Shown piece after piece: positions 20,851 to 64,000 of a DNA stretch of 64,000 nucleotides. Within the stretch, counting starts at the first letter, position 1; every line of letters starts with the position of its first letter. This DNA comes from an uncultured Candidatus Saccharibacteria bacterium. GTDB lineage: Bacteria > Patescibacteriota > UBA1384 > CAILIB01 > JAUSJZ01. The notes under the pieces are model-generated. The model saw only the letters and a list, made by a program, of their open reading frames with translations, searched no databases and was not told the origin of the DNA. Where the stretch lies: contig CAYQWZ010000006.1 in the NCBI GenBank assembly GCA_964421635.1, positions 165 to 64,164 of the forward strand. The letters are read 5' to 3'. Position numbers and translations under genes: made by a program.

Positions 20851-20937
20851 GCCGGGGTGGCGAAATTGGCAGACGCGCTAGATTTAGGATCTAGTAGGAG
20901 CAATCCTGTGGAGGTTCAAGTCCTCTTCCCGGCACCA
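20851..20937 (+). tRNA. tRNA-Leu (anticodon TAG), type II with long variable arm, CCA encoded
   Basis: 7-bp acceptor stem GCCGGGG/TCCCGGC, anticodon stem ctaga/tctag, loop tttagga (anticodon UAG), T-loop TTCAAGT, 3' ACCA. Confidence 0.9.
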
Positions 20938-49570: not shown

Positions 49571-50128
49571 GTGCAAGATATTATAAAAAAAACAGAAGAG
49601 AATTTTAAAGAAACCCTACATTTTTTCGCCGATCGCCTAAAAACGGTGCGAACAGGAAGAGCTAATCCTCAGCTAGTTGAGAATATTAGTGTCAATTATT
49701 ACGGTCAACCAACGCCCCTTATGCACATGGCATCAATCTCTGTTCCCGAGCCAACCGTTATTGCTATTAAACCTTTTGACGCTAACGCTATGGACGACAT
49801 TGTACTAGCCCTAACCAATGCTAAAGATTTAGGATTAACTCCAAACAATGATGGGCAAGTGGTGCGACTTAAATTGCCAGACCTGACAGCTGAGCGCCGA
49901 GAACAGTTAAACAAACAACTGAATCAAATGGCTGAAGAGGCGCGCATTGCCATGAGAAATATTCGTGAAGATACTTGGAAATCCATTCAGCACAAACAAA
50001 AAAATGGTGACCTCACTGAAGATGATAGAGAAATGGGGCGCAAGAAGTTAGATGAGTTAATTGAGGTGTATAATCAAAAGGTAGCTGACCTCTTAGCTAC
50101 CAAAGAAAAAGAAATTTCAGATATATGA
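49571..50128 (+). CDS. frr: Ribosome recycling factor (GTG start)
   Basis: LKTVRTGRANPQLVENISVNYYG, ERREQL motif; 185 aa. Confidence 0.9.
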   Translation: MQDIIKKTEENFKETLHFFADRLKTVRTGRANPQLVENISVNYYGQPTPLMHMASISVPEPTVIAIKPFDANAMDDIVLALTNAKDLGLTPNNDGQVVRLKLPDLTAERREQLNKQLNQMAEEARIAMRNIREDTWKSIQHKQKNGDLTEDDREMGRKKLDELIEVYNQKVADLLATKEKEISDI

Positions 50129-50313
50129 GTTTATTTTGGCCGGCAGTAATATTTATTCTGGTTTTCGCCGTACTGTTTAAGTTGTTTAAAGGATTAGCAG
50201 TTTCACTTCTTTTGTTTTTGGTTATAGAGATAATTTTGATAATAATTAAGCCAGAAATTTTAACATTATTAGCAGATATTGCGGTTAAAGCGCGAGGTTT
50301 ACTGGGTTCATAA
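50125..50313 (+). CDS. Small membrane protein, hypothetical
   Basis: 62 aa with two hydrophobic helices; overlaps frr stop and rseP start. Confidence 0.3.
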   Translation: MSLFWPAVIFILVFAVLFKLFKGLAVSLLLFLVIEIILIIIKPEILTLLADIAVKARGLLGS

Positions 50314-51389
50314 TGTTGTTAAACATTTTAGTTTTTGTAGTGGTTTTAGGGGTCTTAATTCTGGTTCATGAATTAGGCCATTTTTTTGCGGCCAAAGCAG
50401 TGGGCATAAAAGTTGAAGAGTTCGGCGTTGGCTATTCTCCTAGACTTTGGTCGTTCAAAAAAAGCGATACGGTATACTCCCTAAACTGGATTCCCTTCGG
50501 TGGCTTTGTCAAATTGAAGGGAATGTTCGCGGAAGGCACTAGTAAAGCCAAAGACTCGTTCTCCGAAGCATCTGTTTGGGCGCGCATATTCGTGATAGTA
50601 GCGGGAGTATTAATGAATTTCGTGCTGGCTTGGGTATTGTTGTTTGGTGGTTATTTAATAGGATTTTCTCCAGCTACTCAAGATTTAGCTGCTTACCCAG
50701 GGGCAAAAGTGGTTAAAGAAGAGATTGTCATTGCTGGGCTACTAAAAGATTCAGCGGCTGCAGTTGCGGGCATAGAAGCTGGAGATATTGTACAAAGTGT
50801 CAATAATATACCAATTACTAAAATTGAAGATTTACAGCAAGCCACTAAGACGCAGGCAGGAGAAACTATTGAGCTTTCAGTAATTCGTTTAGGAGAGGAA
50901 AAAAAATATTCGATAGAGTTGGGGACGAATACTAATGCTCCGCTGGGTGTTGAGCTTTTTCCAACCAGTGTTATTAAACTGCCAATACTGCAAGCAGCCA
51001 AGGCGGCCACACTCGAAACATATGGCATTACCAAAGCCATATTTATAATTTTTGTAGATATTATTAAAGATGTTTTTTCAGAGGGTCAGGTACCAGAAGG
51101 CGTGTCGGGGCCAGTAGGAATTTATCAGGCGACAGCAGCAGCTACTCGAGTTGGCTTTTCGGCCATTATGTCTTTGGTCATAATCCTAACTCTAAACTTG
51201 GCCATTATTAATATTTTGCCGTTCCCGGCGCTCGACGGCGGATATCTTTTTTTCTTAACTTTGGAGGCAATATTTAGACGCAAGATTGTTAAAAATAAAA
51301 TTGAAGCTTATCTGACGACTTTCGGTTTTGTTTTTCTAATTCTGATTTTATTGATAATGACTTTTAGAGATTTTGCTAGATTTGGCTAA
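50313..51389 (+). CDS. rseP: RseP-type site-2 zinc metalloprotease with PDZ
   Basis: HELGHFFAAK (HExxH), PDZ, C-terminal LDGG motif. Confidence 0.85.
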   Translation: MLLNILVFVVVLGVLILVHELGHFFAAKAVGIKVEEFGVGYSPRLWSFKKSDTVYSLNWIPFGGFVKLKGMFAEGTSKAKDSFSEASVWARIFVIVAGVLMNFVLAWVLLFGGYLIGFSPATQDLAAYPGAKVVKEEIVIAGLLKDSAAAVAGIEAGDIVQSVNNIPITKIEDLQQATKTQAGETIELSVIRLGEEKKYSIELGTNTNAPLGVELFPTSVIKLPILQAAKAATLETYGITKAIFIIFVDIIKDVFSEGQVPEGVSGPVGIYQATAAATRVGFSAIMSLVIILTLNLAIINILPFPALDGGYLFFLTLEAIFRRKIVKNKIEAYLTTFGFVFLILILLIMTFRDFARFG

Positions 51390-51435
51390 CAGGCGGCGAA
51401 TTGTTAGTATGATAATAGATTGAAAAAAAGAAACT

Positions 51436-52863
51436 ATGAGCAAAAATAAAAAGAACATAACACCACAGACAGAGAGTTTTTCGAAGTGGTATCAAGATGT
51501 AGTACGAGAAGCAGATTTGGCCGAAAGTTCAGAAGTTAGAGGCAGTGGCATCGTCAAACCTTATGGTTTCAAAATCTGGAAATTAATAAAAAAACAATTG
51601 GAGAGTCAAATTGAAGCCACGGGCGCAGAAGATGTTTATTTCCCACTGTTAATTCCTATTGCTAATTTAGAGATTGAAAAGAAGCATATAGAAGGATTTT
51701 CCCCAGAATTGGCCGTTGTAACTCATGGTGGTGGAGAAGAGTTGACCAATAAATTAGCCATTAGACCAACCAGTGAGACAGCTATGTATACATCGTATGC
51801 TAAATGGATTCAAGGTTATTCAGACCTGCCTTTGCGTCTAAATCAATGGAATAATGTGATGCGATGGGAGAAACGACCACGAGCATTTTTACGCTGGAGT
51901 GAATTTTTATGGCAAGAAGGGCATTCCGCTTTTGCTACAAAAAAAGAAGCTATTGATGAAGTCTGGCAGATGATAGGTGAATACGAAAAGCTGTATAAAT
52001 ATTTAGCTATTCCTACATTTATTGGCACCAAGTCTGAAGCCGAAAAATTTGCCGGTGCTGAAATGACTGTTAGCGCAGAGGTGATGGCCAGAGATGGAAA
52101 AGCTATTCAGGCGGCGACTAGTCATTATTTGGGTACCAACTTTGCTAAAGCTTTTGGTATTAAATATTCAGACAAAGACGGGAAAAGCCAGTTCGTTCAT
52201 CAGAACAGTTGGGGTTTGTCTTGGCGCTCAGTGGGTGCGGTAATTATGGCTCACGGTGATGATAATGGATTACGCTTGCCACCAAATGTAGCCCCAATTC
52301 AGGTAGTAATTGTGCCTATAGTGAAGGACAATAACGCGGAAGAAATATTGAGTTACTGCCATAAACTCGATGTTCAGCTAAAAGCTTTCAGAACAAAAAT
52401 TGATGAGCGTACAGATTTGAACCCCGGTTTTAAATATAACTATTGGGAAGTAAAAGGTGTACCTGTTCGATTAGAGGTTGGCAGTAAAGAAGTTAAGACT
52501 AATGAAGTGTCAGTCTTTAGAAGAGATACAGCTGAGCGCCAAAATGTAGCAACATCAGAAATTTCGAGTACTGTTAAAAAAACCTTGGCTGATGTGCAAG
52601 ACAATTTGTATCAACAAGCTCAAGAGTTTGCCAGCAGCCACATTCATCGCATTGAAGATGTCTCAGAGATAAAAGAGCAAGTAGGTTTTTTTGAAGCTAG
52701 CTGGTGTGAATCAGAAGAGTCTGAAAAGATGTTGAAAGAGAAATATTCAATCACTTCACGAGTTTTACTAACAAAAGACAAAGAGAGCAAGCCTAAGAAT
52801 AAACAGTGTTTCATTACCAAAAAAGAGGCAAAACACGATTGGCTTTTTGCGCAGAGCTATTAA
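51436..52863 (+). CDS. proS: Prolyl-tRNA synthetase (archaeal/eukaryote-like class II form)
   Basis: FSKWYQDVVREADL start, class II motifs, C-terminal zinc-binding-like domain; 475 aa. Confidence 0.9.
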   Translation: MSKNKKNITPQTESFSKWYQDVVREADLAESSEVRGSGIVKPYGFKIWKLIKKQLESQIEATGAEDVYFPLLIPIANLEIEKKHIEGFSPELAVVTHGGGEELTNKLAIRPTSETAMYTSYAKWIQGYSDLPLRLNQWNNVMRWEKRPRAFLRWSEFLWQEGHSAFATKKEAIDEVWQMIGEYEKLYKYLAIPTFIGTKSEAEKFAGAEMTVSAEVMARDGKAIQAATSHYLGTNFAKAFGIKYSDKDGKSQFVHQNSWGLSWRSVGAVIMAHGDDNGLRLPPNVAPIQVVIVPIVKDNNAEEILSYCHKLDVQLKAFRTKIDERTDLNPGFKYNYWEVKGVPVRLEVGSKEVKTNEVSVFRRDTAERQNVATSEISSTVKKTLADVQDNLYQQAQEFASSHIHRIEDVSEIKEQVGFFEASWCESEESEKMLKEKYSITSRVLLTKDKESKPKNKQCFITKKEAKHDWLFAQSY

Positions 52864-52880
52864 GCCTTAAATAAAAAAGA

Positions 52881-52907
52881 GTCCCAGCGGCGCGCCGCCA
52901 CCGGGAC
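52881..52907. repeat. GC-rich palindromic hairpin (gtccc-agcggcgcgccgcca-ccgggac with internal 12-nt perfect palindrome gcggcgcgccgc); terminator on minus strand
   Basis: A-run immediately 5' on the plus strand (U-run after the hairpin on minus); starts a ~110-nt GC-rich stretch foreign to the AT-rich surroundings. Confidence 0.5.
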
Positions 52908-52980
52908 CCTGGGTCGTCGGCACGATTGGCACCAAGCATTATCTGTCGCCCGAGGAGGTGATCCCGCTTGGTAACCGTTG

Positions 52981-53072
52981 ATTATAGTATCATTAAAAGC
53001 TAAATTGTGTCAATGAGGTAGAAAGTTATTATGGTAATTGTTTTGTAATGATTATGTGTTATTATAGTGTCA
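52981..53072 (+). promoter_or_regulatory. Promoter/operator region of rSAM cluster: direct repeats ATTATAGT(A/G)TCA at 52981 and 53061, the second containing a TATAGT -10-like hexamer
   Basis: Two 12-nt near-identical copies 80 nt apart; the second lies ~20 nt upstream of the peptide ORF SD. Confidence 0.4.
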
Positions 53073-53091
53073 AATAATAGCTGGAGTTTGT

Positions 53092-53145
53092 ATGAAGATA
53101 GTAATAAAAAAGAACAGAGGGTGTTCTCTCTGTGTTCCAACATAG
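53092..53145 (+). CDS. Candidate RiPP precursor peptide (17 aa, two Cys), not in ORF track
   Basis: ATG preceded by CTGGAG SD at -8; translates to MKIVIKKNRGCSLCVPT; stop 27 nt before the rSAM gene SD. Confidence 0.4.
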   Translation: MKIVIKKNRGCSLCVPT

Positions 53146-53172
53146 CACCTTATTTATTAAGGACATTGTGAT

Positions 53173-54147
53173 ATGAGCGAATGTATTAATATCGCCAATC
53201 CTTATTATGTTCAATTACATCTGTTAGCAGATTGTATTTTTAATTGTTCGTACTGTTATTTAAAGGGATATGATAGAAAAAGCATGCTTTCAAAAAAACA
53301 AATTAATACCTTTCTTAACAAATTTAACAACTACTACCAGGACTTTGGTCTCAGAGTACACATAAATTTGACAGGTGGTGACATATGGCTATATGAAGGT
53401 ATTAGCGAAATATTCTTTTTACTAAAAAAACACAAAGTTGTTCAAGATTTTAGTTTGTTGCTCAATAGTCTATGGCATGAAGATTCTTATAAAATTATCA
53501 AAGACAATAAAAATAGCATATCACTTGTACAGCTAAATATAGATGCGATAAATAATAGAGATAAGGACATTCAATTTTTAAGTAAAGAAAAAATTAGATT
53601 TGTTATTAAAATTCTTCTATCAAATAATGAGCATTATTATATAAAACAACTTAATATTCTTCGCAAATTATTAAGAAAATATCCAGATTTATTAGTTTCT
53701 ATTGATAGAATTTGTCCCACCAATCAGTCTAACAAAAAAATGAGACTTTCAGTAAAAAATTTAAAAAAGAAATTATTGGAGATACGATCAATTGCAAATA
53801 ATGTATTAATCGTTGATGATCCTTTAGTTTCTGCTTTTTTTAATAAAGCAAAATCAGAATCGGAAAAAGGATTTTGGAATGGATGTGTAATCCCAAGCGG
53901 TGGCTTAGCTGTATATCCTAATGGGGAAGTAAAACTCTGTGCACGAATACCCAATTATACTACAGGTTTTACAATAAACAATTTCACTTTAGAACATTAC
54001 ATAGATAGTTTTAGTGAGATTAGAAATCAGCAAATGAAAAATTGTAATAAATGTCCAATATCTGCGCAGTGTCAGGGTGGTTGTCCAGCTACATCTTTTA
54101 TTGACAAAAATATTATTACAAAAGATCATCAATGTTTATATGAGTAA
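53173..54147 (+). CDS. Radical SAM enzyme with C-terminal SPASM domain (peptide-modifying maturase candidate)
   Basis: CIFNCSYC (CX3CX2C) near N-terminus, NLTGGDIW glycine-rich SAM motif, C-terminal CNKCPISAQCQGGC (CX2CX5CX3C) plus additional Cys; AT-rich. Confidence 0.8.
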   Translation: MSECINIANPYYVQLHLLADCIFNCSYCYLKGYDRKSMLSKKQINTFLNKFNNYYQDFGLRVHINLTGGDIWLYEGISEIFFLLKKHKVVQDFSLLLNSLWHEDSYKIIKDNKNSISLVQLNIDAINNRDKDIQFLSKEKIRFVIKILLSNNEHYYIKQLNILRKLLRKYPDLLVSIDRICPTNQSNKKMRLSVKNLKKKLLEIRSIANNVLIVDDPLVSAFFNKAKSESEKGFWNGCVIPSGGLAVYPNGEVKLCARIPNYTTGFTINNFTLEHYIDSFSEIRNQQMKNCNKCPISAQCQGGCPATSFIDKNIITKDHQCLYE

Positions 54148-55069
54148 TGAAAATGAAAGGACCAATGAAAACTTGCCTGAAGAAAATAGGTTTGAAGCTA
54201 CAAGGGTAACTTCTTCAGCTGATTTATTGAGAGCAGATTTTCTTTCTGACCAATTAGTTTCATTTCTTACAAATACCACAAAAAGATATTCTCTTTCTGT
54301 GGCTGACATTGAATTAGTGATGGATCTATTATATAGACCTGGTACAGAGGTCAATCGGGAGATTGTTCTTGCACTATCAAAAGTGCTTGAATATAGAGAT
54401 GATTTTTCACCGGAGGGAATGGACCAAGACTATTTAGCAAATTTGCATTTGAATAGAAAATTTAGATATCGTCCTCATTATTATCATTTTAGACAACACT
54501 CAGCTTACACATGTGGTATAGTTTGTTATCTAATGGCTGCGAATGTTCATACATCAGAATTAGTGCCATCAAAGCGTCAAGAAAGAACTCTTTATAATGA
54601 ATTAGCCGATGAAGAAGGTCTTGTATCTACGATTGCTCTAATGAGAGATGCTGCGTCGAGAGGCTTATACGTTCGAGCGTGTTCTGATAATAATTATTTA
54701 GATATTGAAATGGATGATGAAAGGGCAGAATCTCTGAGAAGATCATTTGTCGCTTTATTAGAATCACCAGATGGTCAATCTTTCGTTCGGTATTCTCCTT
54801 CTGTAGATCTTAATGCTGATTATATTCGCGATCAACTGTATCGAGGCGAGATGATGTTAATGAATGGCACAGTTGGTGGAAATATTCCTCATATGAGACT
54901 TGTCGGCGGTTATCATGGTGAATCGATGTTAGTATCAGATCCCTTAGAAAATCGAATACAGCCTCAACAAACGGAAATTTTAGAAGCAAATATTCAAGCT
55001 CCATTGGGAAAATTCGGCTTTAGTGTCTCAAGCAAACCTTTCAATTTTTATGGAGATCAAGAAATATGA
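54140..55069 (+). CDS. Protein with C39-like papain-fold cysteine peptidase domain (putative leader peptidase) plus unknown N-terminal region
   Basis: Start ATG 54140 (ATGAGTAA overlap with rSAM stop). RQHSAYTCGIVCYLMAAN (Q-x5-C-G..C..M, as at the C39 active-site Cys) and HMRLVGGYHGESMLVSDP (His/Asp region like HxVVL....VxxxDP). Confidence 0.5.
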   Translation: MSNENERTNENLPEENRFEATRVTSSADLLRADFLSDQLVSFLTNTTKRYSLSVADIELVMDLLYRPGTEVNREIVLALSKVLEYRDDFSPEGMDQDYLANLHLNRKFRYRPHYYHFRQHSAYTCGIVCYLMAANVHTSELVPSKRQERTLYNELADEEGLVSTIALMRDAASRGLYVRACSDNNYLDIEMDDERAESLRRSFVALLESPDGQSFVRYSPSVDLNADYIRDQLYRGEMMLMNGTVGGNIPHMRLVGGYHGESMLVSDPLENRIQPQQTEILEANIQAPLGKFGFSVSSKPFNFYGDQEI

Positions 55070-56130
55070 GTGAATACTTAAGGGCAAATGTTGCCGAAGT
55101 ATTTACTGGTGAAGAAGAGGTATCTTCAATGGACAACGAAAATCTGACCATTACCGAATCACATGGGCTAGATTTTGATTTTGGGCATCTGGGATCAAAT
55201 GTATTACAAGTTATGAGTGGTCTTAATATTCGATATGACTATTTAAACCCAGAACTAGAATTAACACTTGGTCAGATACAAGAAGAAATAGTATTCCCGA
55301 TATTACAAGAAAGAATTAGAAACAAGGAAAATCCTTTAGTATTGAAAGAACAAATTGATGCAGTCGCAGCAGTATTAGATCCACGATTAATGCCCGCAAG
55401 TTCTTTTGTTGAATTAATGCATTCTGTCTATCGAAGAAAAATAGTAAATCAACAACAAATGAGTTTATTGTTAAGCGGGTGCATTGACAATGCCTTTGAT
55501 GAAGATCAACTTCAAAGAGCAGGAGACCTCTTAGCTGAATCTGAAAGTGTTGAGCCATATTTTTTTGCTATTTCACAAAGAATGAAGGATTTTATTGATT
55601 TTGCTCTAAATAATATTTCTGAGAGATATCAATTGTATGAAGAAGATGAGCTGCTTCTTTCTTCTCCTGCTCAGGCTTCTTTTTACACGCTTAGAATGTT
55701 GGATCATAGAGAAGCAGTACTTGTTAGTAGAGGGTTAATGGTTGGCACAGAATTATCGGTCGAAGATCATGTTGAAATATTGGCCAATCGTTATTATAAC
55801 GGGTCATTATCTAGGGCAAGAAAAGCAATTGAAAATGAAAGGGATATCAATGTTAATGTAGTCGGTTTTGAAGCAATGAAGGAAGGGGTACATCAGTGGT
55901 GGTTAAGAAAATTTTATTACTTACAGTCTAGAAAATTGTATGGTGCATTAGATGTTGACGAATTATTATTTTTCGATAATACTGTTGACAAATTTTTTCA
56001 GTCGAAGAATTGTCTTATGCATGATATTTTTTTAAGGGCAAAAATGGAAGAGATACCCAAAAAAAACTGGTCTCAATGTGATACTGCTGAAATGAGAGAA
56101 AAAGTTCGTAATGTTATCAATAATTTGTAA
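55066..56130 (+). CDS. Hypothetical protein (354 aa), no recognisable domain; part of rSAM cluster
   Basis: ATGA overlap with upstream gene; same low GC as cluster. Confidence 0.45.
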   Translation: MSEYLRANVAEVFTGEEEVSSMDNENLTITESHGLDFDFGHLGSNVLQVMSGLNIRYDYLNPELELTLGQIQEEIVFPILQERIRNKENPLVLKEQIDAVAAVLDPRLMPASSFVELMHSVYRRKIVNQQQMSLLLSGCIDNAFDEDQLQRAGDLLAESESVEPYFFAISQRMKDFIDFALNNISERYQLYEEDELLLSSPAQASFYTLRMLDHREAVLVSRGLMVGTELSVEDHVEILANRYYNGSLSRARKAIENERDINVNVVGFEAMKEGVHQWWLRKFYYLQSRKLYGALDVDELLFFDNTVDKFFQSKNCLMHDIFLRAKMEEIPKKNWSQCDTAEMREKVRNVINNL

Positions 56131-56196
56131 TAGCATTAAAAACTTGACAATTACTCAATAATCCGTTTTAGTTACCTAAAATAAGCAAATATCACG

Positions 56197-56865
56197 ATGA
56201 CAGCCTTAGTTGTTGAAGACGACAGAGATATCGCTACATTTATTGAGAAGGGGTTGAAGTTAGAAGGATTTGTTACGCAGCTAGCTTTCGATGGTGAAGA
56301 GGCGTTGGACTTAATTGAAAGTAACGATTACGACATAGTAATTTTAGATTTAATGCTGCCTAAACTTAAGGGAGAGAAGGTGCTAAGCACTGTTAGAGAG
56401 GCAGGTATTAATGTTCCAATAATTGTGCTAACAGCCAAGACAGAGACTAATTCAAAAGTTAATGCCCTAGACCAAGGGGCCGACGATTATCTAACTAAGC
56501 CTTTTGCTTTTGAAGAATTAATGGCGCGCATTCGAGCTCTGACTCGTCGCGGCAATCAGCTACAACCAAACATTTTACAGGTAGGTGAGTTAGAGCTTAA
56601 TCCGGCGACGCGAGAAGTGAAGCGGGCAGGAAAAATTTTAGAGCTGACCAAAAAAGAGTACGCCATAGTGGAGTTATTGATGCGAAATACTGAGCGAGTT
56701 TGTACCCGTAGCATGATAGGTGAGCATGTTTGGGGTTTTGAATTCGATATGATGAGCAATGTGATAGATGTGCATATCGCTCGTTTGCGTCGTAAGGTTG
56801 ATAAAGGATTTTCAAAAAAAATGGTTCGTACTATTCGTGATGTCGGATACCGATTGCAGGTCTAA
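56197..56865 (+). CDS. OmpR/PhoB-family response regulator (orphan)
   Basis: LVVEDDRDI, DLMLPKLKG, VRTIRDVGYRL; TTGACA -35-like hexamer 17 nt from TTTAGT upstream. Confidence 0.85.
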   Translation: MTALVVEDDRDIATFIEKGLKLEGFVTQLAFDGEEALDLIESNDYDIVILDLMLPKLKGEKVLSTVREAGINVPIIVLTAKTETNSKVNALDQGADDYLTKPFAFEELMARIRALTRRGNQLQPNILQVGELELNPATREVKRAGKILELTKKEYAIVELLMRNTERVCTRSMIGEHVWGFEFDMMSNVIDVHIARLRRKVDKGFSKKMVRTIRDVGYRLQV

Positions 56866-57182
56866 CTGTATTACCTACTAAACTAGTTGGTCAATGTCAT
56901 CTGGTTGTAATTTATTTTTGTCATAATGTATTTAATGATGACTAGACTCCGGGGCGCAAAAGCTGCCAGCAAGCCAAAAGGTCCCGAAGACAAAAAGATT
57001 CATGACCTCAAGGGTCTGAAAATGCGCAAAGGGGAAAAAAGACGAAAGGATTATTTTCCCCAGTATAGAGGTGGTTGAAACCATCTTGTAAGCTGACCAG
57101 GCAATAATGAAAATTAATCTGTTTGCCTGGCAGTTTATTTGTTCTATTAACAAATCCTCTAATCTGTGAGAAGTTGCTTTTA

Positions 57183-58556
57183 ATGCTCAAGAAAGATTTA
57201 GCTAAATTTGTCAAGCCCCTATCTTCGAATCCTGGTGTTTATATTTTTAGAAATAAAGCGGGTAAAGTTTTGTATGTGGGAAAAGCGGTCAAATTAAAGG
57301 AGCGAGTAAAAAGCTACGCTGACCCCAAAGAGCGAGGGCCAAAAATTTTGAGAATGATGCAACAGGCCAGTACTGTGAAGGTGGAAGAGACAGATTCAGA
57401 GATCGAAGCTATTATTTTAGAGGCCAATATTATTCGGAAACTTAAGCCGCCGTATAATACTTTAGGAAAAGATGATAAAAGCGCCAATTATATAAAAATT
57501 ACTTGGAGCGAAGAGTATCCTCGGGTACAGCTATTGCGGGGGAGAGTAATAGAGTCGGGACAAGATAAGAAGACAAACGAGAAAAGCAAAAAACAAGATA
57601 AAATCTTTGGCCCATATGTAGCTATTGGTATGTGTGATGTTTTGCGTATTATTCGTAAAATTTGGCCTCACCGCGACTGTGGCCAATCGAAATTTAATTC
57701 TTATAAAAAGCTCCGCCGCGGCTGTCTGTTTGCCCAAATTGGTCTTTGCGATGCGCCTTGCATTGAGAATATTTCAGCTAAAGAATATCGCCAGCAGATA
57801 AAACAGATTGTAGATTTTCTATCTGGCAAAAAAGTTAAAGTAATTGAAGCTATGAAGCGCGATATGGAAGCGGCTGCAATGCTTGAACGGTACGAAAAGG
57901 CGGCCAAGCTGCGCGATCGCGTTTCTGCACTCGAGCATTTGAAAGAATTTGTCGGGCGAGGAATCTTGCGAGGATTTGAAGAGAATAAAGAAAAAATTCG
58001 ACAAGGCATTAAAGTCGAAGCTTATGATATTAGTAATATGCAGGGCGATTACGCGGTAGGAGTAATGGTCAGCGCATCTATTATTTCGCAGGAAGATAAA
58101 ATTATGCCAGCCGATGTGGTCTTTACTAAAGAGAATTATAAAAAATTCAAAATTAAAACTGTTAAAGGGACCAACGATGTAGCTATGTTAGATGAAGTTT
58201 TGCGGCGGCGCTTCTCTCGGGCACGAGTCAGTCGCGCCGCCGCTTTAGGGGCAGAGCGCGGAATGGGTGAGTGGGAATTACCAGACTTAATTATTTTAGA
58301 TGGGGGCGAAGGACAGCTGTCGCGGGTTAGGGCGACGGCTAAAGGAATGGGTATAAAAGTGCCAATAATCGCTGTTTCAAAAGGCCAAACTCGCAAGCGA
58401 GTAGATTTACATATGCGAGCGCAAGATAAAATTAAGATAAAATATTCCAATCGACAGTTGAAAAAAATTGCTCTTACTATGCGAGAAGAGGCTCACCGAT
58501 TTGCAATCTCATATTATAGAAAAACGCATCGGCGTAGTTTACGCTCTTCATTTTAG
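57183..58556 (+). CDS. uvrC: Excinuclease ABC subunit C (short UvrC)
   Basis: GIY-YIG (PGVYIFRNKAGKVLYVGKA...YNT), Cys cluster CLFAQIGLCDAPC, UvrB-interaction helix, PDLIILDGGEGQL endonuclease region; ORF-track start 57123, first ATG 57183. Confidence 0.8.
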   Translation: MLKKDLAKFVKPLSSNPGVYIFRNKAGKVLYVGKAVKLKERVKSYADPKERGPKILRMMQQASTVKVEETDSEIEAIILEANIIRKLKPPYNTLGKDDKSANYIKITWSEEYPRVQLLRGRVIESGQDKKTNEKSKKQDKIFGPYVAIGMCDVLRIIRKIWPHRDCGQSKFNSYKKLRRGCLFAQIGLCDAPCIENISAKEYRQQIKQIVDFLSGKKVKVIEAMKRDMEAAAMLERYEKAAKLRDRVSALEHLKEFVGRGILRGFEENKEKIRQGIKVEAYDISNMQGDYAVGVMVSASIISQEDKIMPADVVFTKENYKKFKIKTVKGTNDVAMLDEVLRRRFSRARVSRAAALGAERGMGEWELPDLIILDGGEGQLSRVRATAKGMGIKVPIIAVSKGQTRKRVDLHMRAQDKIKIKYSNRQLKKIALTMREEAHRFAISYYRKTHRRSLRSSF

Positions 58557-63067: not shown

Positions 63068-64000
63068 TATATTTAAGAGTTTGATCCTGGCTCAGGACTA
63101 ACGTTGGCGATGTGCCTAACACATGCAAGTCGAGCGGCCCTTCGGGGCAGCGGCAGACGGCTGAGTAACACGTCCGTAACATACCCCAAAGCGGGGGATA
63201 GCTCGTCGAAAGACGGGGTAATACCCCATGTGGTGTCACCATAATTTGGTGCCATTAAAGTATTTATACACTTTGGGAGTGGCGGGCGGCCTATCAGGTT
63301 GTTGGTGAGGTAAAGGCTCACCAAGCCTACGACGGGTAGCTGGTCTGAGAGGATGTACCAGCCAGACCGGGACTGAGACACGGCCCGGACTCCTACGGGA
63401 GGCAGCAGTTGGGAATTTTGCACAATGGACGAAAGTCTGATGCAGCAACATCGCGTGTAGGAAGACGCACTTCGGTGTGTAAACTACTTTTATTTGGGAA
63501 TAATTTTTTGAAGGTACCTTATGAATAAGCACCGGCTAATCTCGTGCCAGCAGCCGCGGTAATACGAGAGGTGCAAACGTTGTCCGGAATTACTGGGCGT
63601 AAAGAGTACGTAGGTGGTTTGATAAGTCGTTTATTAAAGATCAGGGCTTAACCCTGGGAATGTGAGCGAAACTGTCTTACTTGAGTTAAGCAGAGGTGTG
63701 CGGAACACTCGGTGAAGGGGTGACATCCGTTGATATCGAGTGGAACACCAAAGGCGAAAGCAGCACACTGGGCTTTAACTGACACTGAGGTACGAAAGCG
63801 TAGGTAGCGATCGGGATTAGATACCCCGGTAGTCTACGCTGTAAACGCTGCTCACTAGGCATTGGAAAGTATCGACCCTCTTTAGTGCCAAAGCTAACGC
63901 GTTAAGTGAGCCGCCTGGGGAGTACGAACGCAAGTTTAAAACTCAAAGGAATTGGCGGGGAGACGCACAAGTGGTGGAGCGTGTGGTTTAATTCGATGCT
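63068..64000 (+). rRNA. rrs: 16S ribosomal RNA, 5' ~930 nt (continues beyond window)
   Basis: AGAGTTTGATCCTGGCTCAG at 63076, GTGCCAGCAGCCGCGGTAATAC at ~63545, ATTAGATACCCCGGTAGTC, AAACTCAAAGGAATTGGCGG; overlapping minus-strand ORFs are spurious. Confidence 0.92.

Follow-up and report, generated by a model that had tools for sequence, protein, structure and literature searches.

A 17-codon open reading frame (ORF) lies immediately ahead of a gene for a radical S-adenosylmethionine (rSAM) enzyme in a 64,000-nucleotide stretch of DNA from an uncultured Candidatus Saccharibacteria bacterium (contig CAYQWZ010000006.1, positions 165 to 64,164; hereafter the window), and we judge it very likely that this ORF encodes a real precursor or substrate peptide of the cassette that it heads. 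The explanation that best accounts for the observations as a whole, and which we hold to be probable, is that the small ORF is a genuine, conserved gene providing a precursor of the kind found in pathways to peptides that are made on the ribosome and modified after translation (RiPPs), within a putative four-gene cassette made up of the peptide, an rSAM enzyme with a SPASM domain, a cysteine peptidase of the C39 type and an all-alpha protein that is an orphan. Comparison of related loci shows the peptide to be genetically linked to these three proteins and, at the level of sequence, the small ORF to be under purifying selection acting on its amino acids.

The small ORF and its setting

A sequence-only reading of the window had picked out an unannotated ORF of 17 amino acids with two cysteines directly 5' of the rSAM gene, together with a Shine-Dalgarno (SD)-like element ahead of its ATG. 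Both are present, and the features of the cassette are as follows, with positions numbered along the window.

53083 to 53086, plus strand: GGAG, SD-like, read from the sequence, 5 nt 5' of the ATG of the small ORF
53092 to 53145, plus strand: 17-codon ORF encoding MKIVIKKNRGCSLCVPT and a stop (ATG 53092-53094, TAG 53143-53145), the proposed precursor or substrate peptide
53173 to 54147, plus strand: rSAM/SPASM enzyme, 324 aa (PF04055, TIGR04085)
54140 to 55069, plus strand: C39-type papain-like cysteine peptidase, 309 aa, with weak Pfam matches to DUF3335 and Peptidase_C39
55066 to 56130, plus strand: 354-aa orphan all-alpha protein ('unk'), a conserved member of the cassette

The core of the peptide reads N8-R-G-C11-S-L-C14-V-P-T17, and the N-terminal part (about residues 1-7) is rich in Lys and Ile and may be the portion that is recognised by the modifying machinery. 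An in-frame TAG is found at 53065-53067, with no alternative start codon from there to the ATG. In one minor respect the sequence-only reading was inaccurate: the 27 nt that it measured from the end of the ORF to the SD of the rSAM gene in fact separate the small-ORF stop from the rSAM start codon (53173), and the AGGA of the rSAM gene (53160-53163) comes 14 nt past that stop. Its expectation that standard gene callers would miss the ORF was borne out: the same organism has four other assemblies, none of which has the ORF called, and a search of about 15 billion predicted proteins found none of ten homologous peptides of 26-43 aa. The family is thus unannotated in every collection that we could examine. 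We found no second copy of the precursor in the window.

The small ORF also contains a 6-bp hairpin (53114-53133, ACAGAGGG...CTCTCTGT) that spans both Cys codons. It is terminator-like on the minus strand only, where no gene ends, and probably just follows from the codons used there.

A family of small ORFs with a common core

The rSAM family comprises 23 clusters among 5.8 billion proteins, 37-55% identical, the named ones belonging to Patescibacteria/Collierbacteria. We obtained the corresponding loci through an index of encoding contigs and through genome and metagenome scans. Of these, 18 distinct loci have a small ORF of 17-38 codons as the first gene of the cassette and on its strand, five lineages having one of exactly 17 aa. 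Examples of the encoded peptides are given below.

Window: MKIVIKKNRGCSLCVPT
L048 (closest relative): MKIILVVNAGCSLCMPT
L003: MKVRVLRNKTCKICQGE
L020: MKVKKAKNKSCSVCSHD
L051: MTIKVKKNKCCEICVPS
L029: MKVKLVKNKGCKICVPTAPTK
L006: MVKTKKNKTCHICFPTQKVTSPKIKK
L023: MKKKIKKILVKKVKNNGCHICIPTVKK
L025: MIIKNMKNKKVSTNKKIIVKIVKNKACHLCCPSRSLGK, which includes C-C-P-S-R-S-L

The peptides share the core N-x-x-C-x-x-C-x-P-[T/S/D/E]. Conservation of the two-cysteine core across orthologous cassettes had been put forward as a check on the precursor reading, and both cysteines (Cys1 and Cys2) were indeed found in 18/18 peptides, across rSAM enzymes that have diverged to the extent given above. Asn occupies position -3 relative to Cys1 in 17/18 (in L001 it is at -2), a Thr, Ser, Asp or Glu occupies +3 relative to Cys2 in 17/18 (L028 has an acidic residue at +2), and Pro is found at +2 of Cys2 in 14/18, with C-x-P-[ST] in 13/18. 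The residue preceding Cys1 is small in nearly all homologues (G, A, S, T or C, and once M), the peptides contain two cysteines and rarely three or four, and in several lineages the ORF stops immediately after the conserved T/S/D/E. The Lys/Ile-rich character that had been noted in the N-terminal half of the window peptide has its counterpart across the family, as all 18 peptides have a Lys-rich N-terminus with alternating hydrophobic residues.

Another way to view the conservation is through the codons. Between loci the conserved residues are encoded by synonymous alternatives (TGT/TGC, AAC/AAT, CCA/CCG/CCT/CCC and ACA/ACT/ACG). When the window is set beside L048, its closest relative, the core codons differ by synonymous changes alone (GGG/GGC, TCT/TCG and ACA/ACG), and the non-coding DNA upstream and downstream of the small ORF has diverged. 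The gap from the ORF to the next gene is -40 to +56 nt in 17/18 loci. In L001, where the gene order is rearranged so that the all-alpha gene comes first, the small ORF still heads the cassette, with a gap of 52 nt. The reading of the ORF as a RiPP precursor is thus supported by homologous small ORFs at the head of 18 cassettes, by invariant cysteines and by synonymous variation. Nor was the ORF found to be generally absent or frameshifted in homologous clusters, one lineage alone lacking it, and no longer conserved precursor was found elsewhere in the cassette.

The window 17-mer is too short for profile tools, and family scans were done with eight homologous peptides. With E values allowed up to 10, neither NCBIfam nor Pfam gave a meaningful match to these, the sole weak Pfam match being that of one peptide to DUF1463 (E = 0.15). 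Seven further loci (L013, L016, L033, L035 and L039-L041) were set aside as carrying distant generic SPASM enzymes of other kinds. In L031, whose rSAM is 29% identical, a vaguely similar TTG-started frame lies 3.3 kb downstream, and this was not counted. The same cassette, with two C39-like genes and the partner, is also found in the 2.8-kb L012 (contig PWUQ01000032.1), which is binned as 'Candidatus Parvarchaeota archaeon'. The archaeal label is probably a binning error; were the binning true, presence of the cassette in DPANN archaea would be notable.

The rSAM/SPASM enzyme

The rSAM protein matches PF04055 (36.3 bits against a cutoff of 29.5) and the SPASM model TIGR04085 (37.9 bits against 27). 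Its CxxxCxxC motif (C21/C25/C28) is kept in 22/23 homologues, and the SPASM seven-cysteine motif (C238, C256, C291, C294, C300, C304 and C321), which serves two auxiliary [4Fe-4S] clusters, is invariant in 23/23. An eighth candidate ligand, C181, is present in 18/23 homologues only. In an AlphaFold2 (AF2) model of the protein (pLDDT 84) the top Foldseek matches were SuiB, anSME (E = 5e-11), SkfB, TigE and PqqE, and a search of the rSAM profile against the Protein Data Bank (PDB) gave CteB (5wgg) as best match, in the SPASM region. On these comparisons, the family is a divergent member of the peptide-modifying SPASM group.

Its scores stay far short of the cutoff of every curated model for a specific family. 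The best specific NCBIfam model was TIGR04340 (ACGX-system rSAM), with 48 bits against a cutoff of 400, and this was the sole alignment to run end to end (residues 12-322 against 4-338 of 341). Other curated models gave 38 bits (SbtM), 33.7 against 340 (PapB, NF047865) and 20.6 against 425 (SCIFF maturase, TIGR03974). TIGR03942 (anSME, 12.8 bits against 349) and TIGR03962 (MftC, 15.3 against 265) both spanned the SPASM part only. Since the scores to the curated thioether-forming families are low, the chemistry is not assignable by homology.

The peptidase and the all-alpha partner

The peptidase has an N-terminal domain of about 105 aa without assigned function, followed by a C39-like region, and 11/11 aligned homologues match C39-like Pfam families. 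Residues Q119, C125, H251 and D267 are invariant, with spacings (Q-C 6 and H-D 16) like those of the ComA peptidase domain. The catalytic tetrad is intact and the enzyme apparently active. A C39-like gene is linked to the small ORF in most loci. Some loci have two such genes and others have a 141-162-aa version. We propose that the C39-type enzyme is the leader and/or follower peptidase of the cassette. The loci with two C39-like genes (L006, L010, L024, L049 and L050) encode peptides with C-terminal followers of 8-10 basic, Lys-rich residues after C-x-P-[ST], compared with 0-5 residues in loci with a single peptidase (the window, L011, L023, L025 and L029). This hints that the second C39-like enzyme trims the C-terminal follower, the correlation being a weak one in which the two-peptidase loci may be a single clade.

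The all-alpha protein has homologues in nearly all loci and 21 representatives among 1.84 billion proteins. Its invariant residues are Y57, Y59, E163, D213, K282, D304, H319 and D320, the last two forming an H319-D320 pair. It gave no Pfam, NCBIfam or PDB-sequence match, and its AF2 model, which is all-helical (pLDDT 84), gave no Foldseek match in PDB or BFVD. We propose that it acts in substrate presentation, as a scaffold, or in a second tailoring step. Word-indexed homology searches with the peptidase and the partner returned self matches only, and the homologues of both were drawn from the fetched loci together with an exhaustive search.

Two representatives, P0033 (928 aa) and P0035 (950 aa), are fusions of rSAM, peptidase and partner, and P0034, P0040 and P0042 are fusions of peptidase and partner, the order in each being that of the individual genes of the window. 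The fusions argue that the rSAM enzyme, the peptidase and the partner act together.

The rSAM gene has a GC content of 23-28%, against about 40% in the flanks (proS upstream; a response regulator gene and uvrC downstream), and the flanking genes differ in every related locus. The low GC of the rSAM gene and the differing neighbours therefore suggest a mobile cassette, one that has moved horizontally among Patescibacteria.

A proposed pathway

The known ranthipeptides use Asn (NxxcA, Cys23 to Asn20), Thr (SCIFF) and Asp (freyrasin) as thioether acceptors (PMC8326336, PMC9389541). Among possible modifications we favour two short thioether rings, because the conserved residues at i-3 and i+3 are of these known acceptor types. 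By this analogy, Cys-derived thioether cross-links in the core are a tentative proposal, to which we would give somewhat less than an even chance.

The pathway that we propose would begin with recognition of the N-terminus, whose Lys-rich, alternating hydrophobic and basic residues, ending K-N-K, would act as a very short recognition segment. Because no RiPP recognition element (RRE) is detectable, recognition would be either direct or mediated by the all-alpha protein or the N-terminal domain of the peptidase. The rSAM/SPASM enzyme would apply 5'-deoxyadenosyl radical chemistry to N-x-x-C-x-x-C-x-P-[T/S/D/E], one ring joining Cys1 to Asn(-3), as in NxxcA, and the other joining Cys2 to Thr/Ser/Asp/Glu(+3), as in ranthipeptides of the SCIFF or PapB type. 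One of the peptide's cysteines may ligate an open site of the auxiliary cluster, for which the protein has only seven invariant cysteines. The C39-type peptidase would cut off the leader ahead of Cys1, a position that we propose because the P1 residue is small in nearly all homologues. Where a second C39-like gene is present, its product may remove the basic C-terminal follower.

Comparison with known systems

The cassette belongs to a known kind of system, in which a short precursor is accompanied by an rSAM/SPASM maturase and by a peptidase. Among the features generic to such RiPP cassettes, the rSAM core, the SPASM domain, the short precursor and the peptidase are all found here, and the RRE is not.

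The nearest counterpart of the N-x-x-C half of the core is NxxcA/NxxcB, a RaS-RiPP system of Streptococcus orisratti in which a beta-thioether links Cys23 to Asn20 and the auxiliary cluster of NxxcB is thought to bind the Cys thiolate (PMC9389541, PMC8326336). The likeness lies in the motif and the domain, with an N-x-x-C in the precursor (17/18 here) and an rSAM with SPASM. However, the peptides described here have a second invariant Cys and the conserved x-P-[T/S/D/E], and the precursor is shorter (17 aa). The partners also differ, the C39-type peptidase here being a stand-alone protein and the all-alpha protein an orphan, and the hosts are Patescibacteria, not Streptococcus. Nothing like the streptococcal shp/rgg operon was found among the genes examined around the cassette.

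For the C-x-x-[T/S/D/E] half, the comparison is with SCIFF/CteB and PapB, which form Cys to Thr C-gamma thioethers and Cys-x3-Asp C-beta thioethers, respectively. CteB gave the best profile match to a solved structure, the acceptor-type residues likewise stand at a fixed short distance downstream of Cys, and the seven SPASM cysteines are invariant, as with SCIFF/CteB. The SCIFF model score, however, is far below its cutoff, there is no N-terminal RRE, the core has two cysteines compared with six, the precursors of this family are 17-38 aa long compared with about 45 aa, and no SCIFF model was matched. PapB differs in its likewise low model score and in acting on C-x3-D repeats, unlike the single C-x-x-[T/S/D/E] found here. 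The ACGX system, which to our knowledge is itself uncharacterised, provides the best model, an enzyme of similar size and, as here, no RRE extension. Its score nevertheless falls far short of the cutoff, and ACGX repeats are absent from our peptides, whose N-x-x-C-x-x-C core occurs once.

Two further systems resemble the cassette in other ways. Like the window enzyme, anSME is an RRE-less rSAM/SPASM protein of similar size, and it acts on Cys in C-x-P-x-R, comparable with the C-x-P of 14/18 peptides here. However, 17/18 peptides lack the Arg, and in place of a sulfatase the substrate would be a dedicated mini-peptide that has its own peptidase. In the pyrroloquinoline quinone (PQQ; PqqA/PqqE) and mycofactocin (MftA/MftC) pathways, a very short and often missed precursor gene precedes the rSAM/SPASM gene and a dedicated peptidase is present. 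The arrangement here is alike, including a C-terminal site in several lineages, but there is no PqqD/MftB-type RRE, the similarity to PqqE and MftC is low, and the core residue is Cys, compared with Glu/Tyr or Val-Tyr.

Alternative explanations

Considered in isolation, the window makes a modest case against a chance open frame in AT-rich intergenic DNA. The ORF is tiny, and when the 309-nt intergenic region was shuffled 20,000 times, a comparable ORF (ATG-started, at least 12 aa long, containing CxxC and with its end no more than 60 nt from the rSAM start) arose in 192 cases, so that for the window alone p is ~0.01, a probability of about 1% that is non-negligible genome-wide. The whole window has six ATG ORFs of 10-45 aa with CxxC in all six frames. 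The motifs [KR]N..C..C and C..C.P[TS], however, are each found a single time in the six frames of the 64 kb, in both cases at the small ORF. Because the comparative data place the same motif-bearing ORF at the same position in 18 distinct loci, we regard chance as excluded, with a residual probability that is very small. The sequence-only reading had offered as a fallback a leader or attenuator peptide, that is, a regulatory upstream ORF controlling the rSAM operon, for example by stalling at its Cys codons, and a short ORF with two Cys codons directly 5' of an operon would suit that role. The fallback found no support: no terminator-like site was found on the plus strand between the small ORF and the rSAM gene, the RNA fold of the region is no more stable than shuffles (z = -0.71), and an Rfam scan of 50000-58000 at E up to 1 gave no riboswitch or attenuator match. 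The gap to the next gene, at most 56 nt in 17/18 loci, leaves no room for alternative hairpins, and attenuation was rejected on the lack of a terminator, of a stable fold and of such space. Amino-acid-level conservation over a 10-residue motif, with synonymous changes, and the L001 arrangement, in which the small ORF precedes a different cassette gene, also argue against it, and we consider regulation by the ORF extremely improbable. An unmodified peptide, whether a CxxC metal- or Fe-S-binding subunit or a regulator acting alongside the enzymes, or a relic of the N-terminal half of bL36, would account for the CxxC, a common metal-binding knuckle, and for the several homologues that start MKV[RK]... 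and continue with a K/N-rich stretch and CxxC, a beginning that we take to resemble that of bL36 (MKVRASVKKxCxxCK...). Yet scans of eight peptides gave no match to the bL36 family even at E values as high as 10, the peptides have the first CxxC but not the CxxxH zinc site of the second half, and the window has no bL36-like ORF that we could find. A Zn or Fe site needs more ligands than two cysteines can supply, Asn, Pro and T/S/D/E are conserved besides Cys, and the linked peptidase, with its intact tetrad in most loci, points to processing. We think an unmodified peptide very unlikely.

The strongest of the alternatives keeps the substrate and changes the chemistry, such that Cys2 is converted to formylglycine in the manner of anSME, or the C-terminal core becomes a small redox cofactor or metallophore that the peptidase releases, in the style of PQQ and mycofactocin. 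The anSME match is among the top structural ones and is to an RRE-less enzyme, the frequent C-x-P-[ST] resembles the sulfatase motif C-x-P-x-R (L025 reads C-C-P-S-R-S-L), the ending of the ORF directly after the conserved T/S/D/E in several lineages is like the C-terminal modification sites of MftA, and the lack of a transporter in the cassette is compatible with a cofactor-type pathway, of which PQQ and mycofactocin are known short-precursor examples. However, the anSME and MftC models score far under their cutoffs and over the SPASM part alone, the sulfatase-motif Arg at +4 is present in 1/18 peptides, and formylglycine or cofactor models leave the invariant Cys1 and near-invariant Asn unexplained. 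CteB has a cluster with an open coordination site, and the clusters of anSME are fully ligated. Seven invariant SPASM cysteines, with C181 in 18/23, fit the former better than the latter. We consider this alternative unlikely.

Certain observations do weigh against the ORF being the precursor of an rSAM-modified peptide in the way proposed. No RRE was found, and the rSAM protein begins just 20 residues ahead of its cluster motif. Neither the peptidase nor the all-alpha protein has a PqqD-type Pfam match, and the profiles of both match no PDB chain. An RRE is common in rSAM/SPASM RiPP cassettes, but not obligatory. The rSAM lies far under the cutoff of every curated thioether-forming family, no transporter is found in the conserved cassette, and the peptides have no double-glycine site, so that the cleavage site is a guess. 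The fusions, known as protein sequences, could in principle be artefacts of assembly or gene calling. SD motifs are weak or absent before most of the homologous small ORFs, and we treat the GGAG of the window as supportive only. The motif itself has the two departures noted above, in L001 (Asn at -2, not -3) and in L028 (acidic residue at +2). The latter is the most divergent cassette, its peptide MNMKAKVVKTAKKVAVRKNKCCCMCYD (L028:3252-3335) having four cysteines and no C39-like gene being present. Its partner gene is followed by an asparagine-synthase-like gene (PF00733; L028:5504-7027), a hint that tailoring or cyclisation takes another form there.

Finally, a Saccharibacteria lineage (L009/L019) has the enzymes without a recognisable small ORF. 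In both loci the upstream region contains a CxxC...CxxC zinc-ribbon-like frame that is interrupted by a stop and has no start codon (L009:4765-4917), and the partner gene has just 161 codons before a stop or frame change (L009:6806-7321). Because there is no intact small ORF and the partner gene looks truncated or frameshifted, we read this lineage as what may be a decaying cassette and not a counter-example.

Other features of the window

Between proS and the cassette lies a GC-rich segment (52868-52980, minus strand) with, on the minus strand, a promoter-like TTGACA-18-TACTAT with TG (53013..52984), then about 100 nt, and a 15-bp GC-rich hairpin with a T-run (52910..52878). The segment folds at -48.7 kcal/mol (z = -3.0) and contains GGAUCACCUCCU, which presumably matches the 3' end of 16S rRNA (anti-SD), the plus strand then being a perfect extended SD. 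It had no Rfam match and is a candidate small RNA. At gathering score the only Rfam matches of the window were a single tRNA gene (20851-20934) and a bacterial 16S rRNA gene (63069-64000), which runs off the window end after its 5' 958 positions.

Significance

The precursor family, its shortness, the absence of an RRE, the orphan partner and the apparent restriction to Patescibacteria are not described in the searchable curated libraries or literature, and literature searches on the cassette, on rSAM RiPPs of the Candidate Phyla Radiation (CPR) and on ACGX found nothing relevant. One reading of the cassette is that it represents a RiPP class of its own, or a pathway to a peptide-derived cofactor, that occurs in Patescibacteria only. 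Recognition would be RRE-less, conversion would be the joint work of a highly divergent SPASM enzyme and the orphan all-alpha protein, whose fold is unlike those on record, and the product would have a role in the episymbiotic lifestyle of these bacteria with reduced genomes. We regard this reading as rather unlikely. On it, the peptide might end up as a bicyclic N-x-x-C / C-x-x-T thioether hepta- or decapeptide, or as a Cys-derived small molecule.

If the 17-residue product is truly the substrate, it would be among the shortest known for an rSAM enzyme. A 17-mer is synthetically trivial, which makes the chemistry directly testable in vitro. The precursor family, together with an RRE-less divergent rSAM and an orphan partner, would provide a compact model for leader-independent substrate recognition by SPASM enzymes. 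More generally, motif-anchored searches for small ORFs beside rSAM genes can bring to light precursors that escape gene callers. The genomes of Patescibacteria (CPR) are tiny, with few or no biosynthetic gene clusters in most reports, and one survey found none in its Patescibacteria genomes (PMC11613949). The cassette described here appears to be a complete and conserved one that has been overlooked in these organisms, its key gene having gone unnoticed because, at 17 codons, it falls below the usual size cut-offs.

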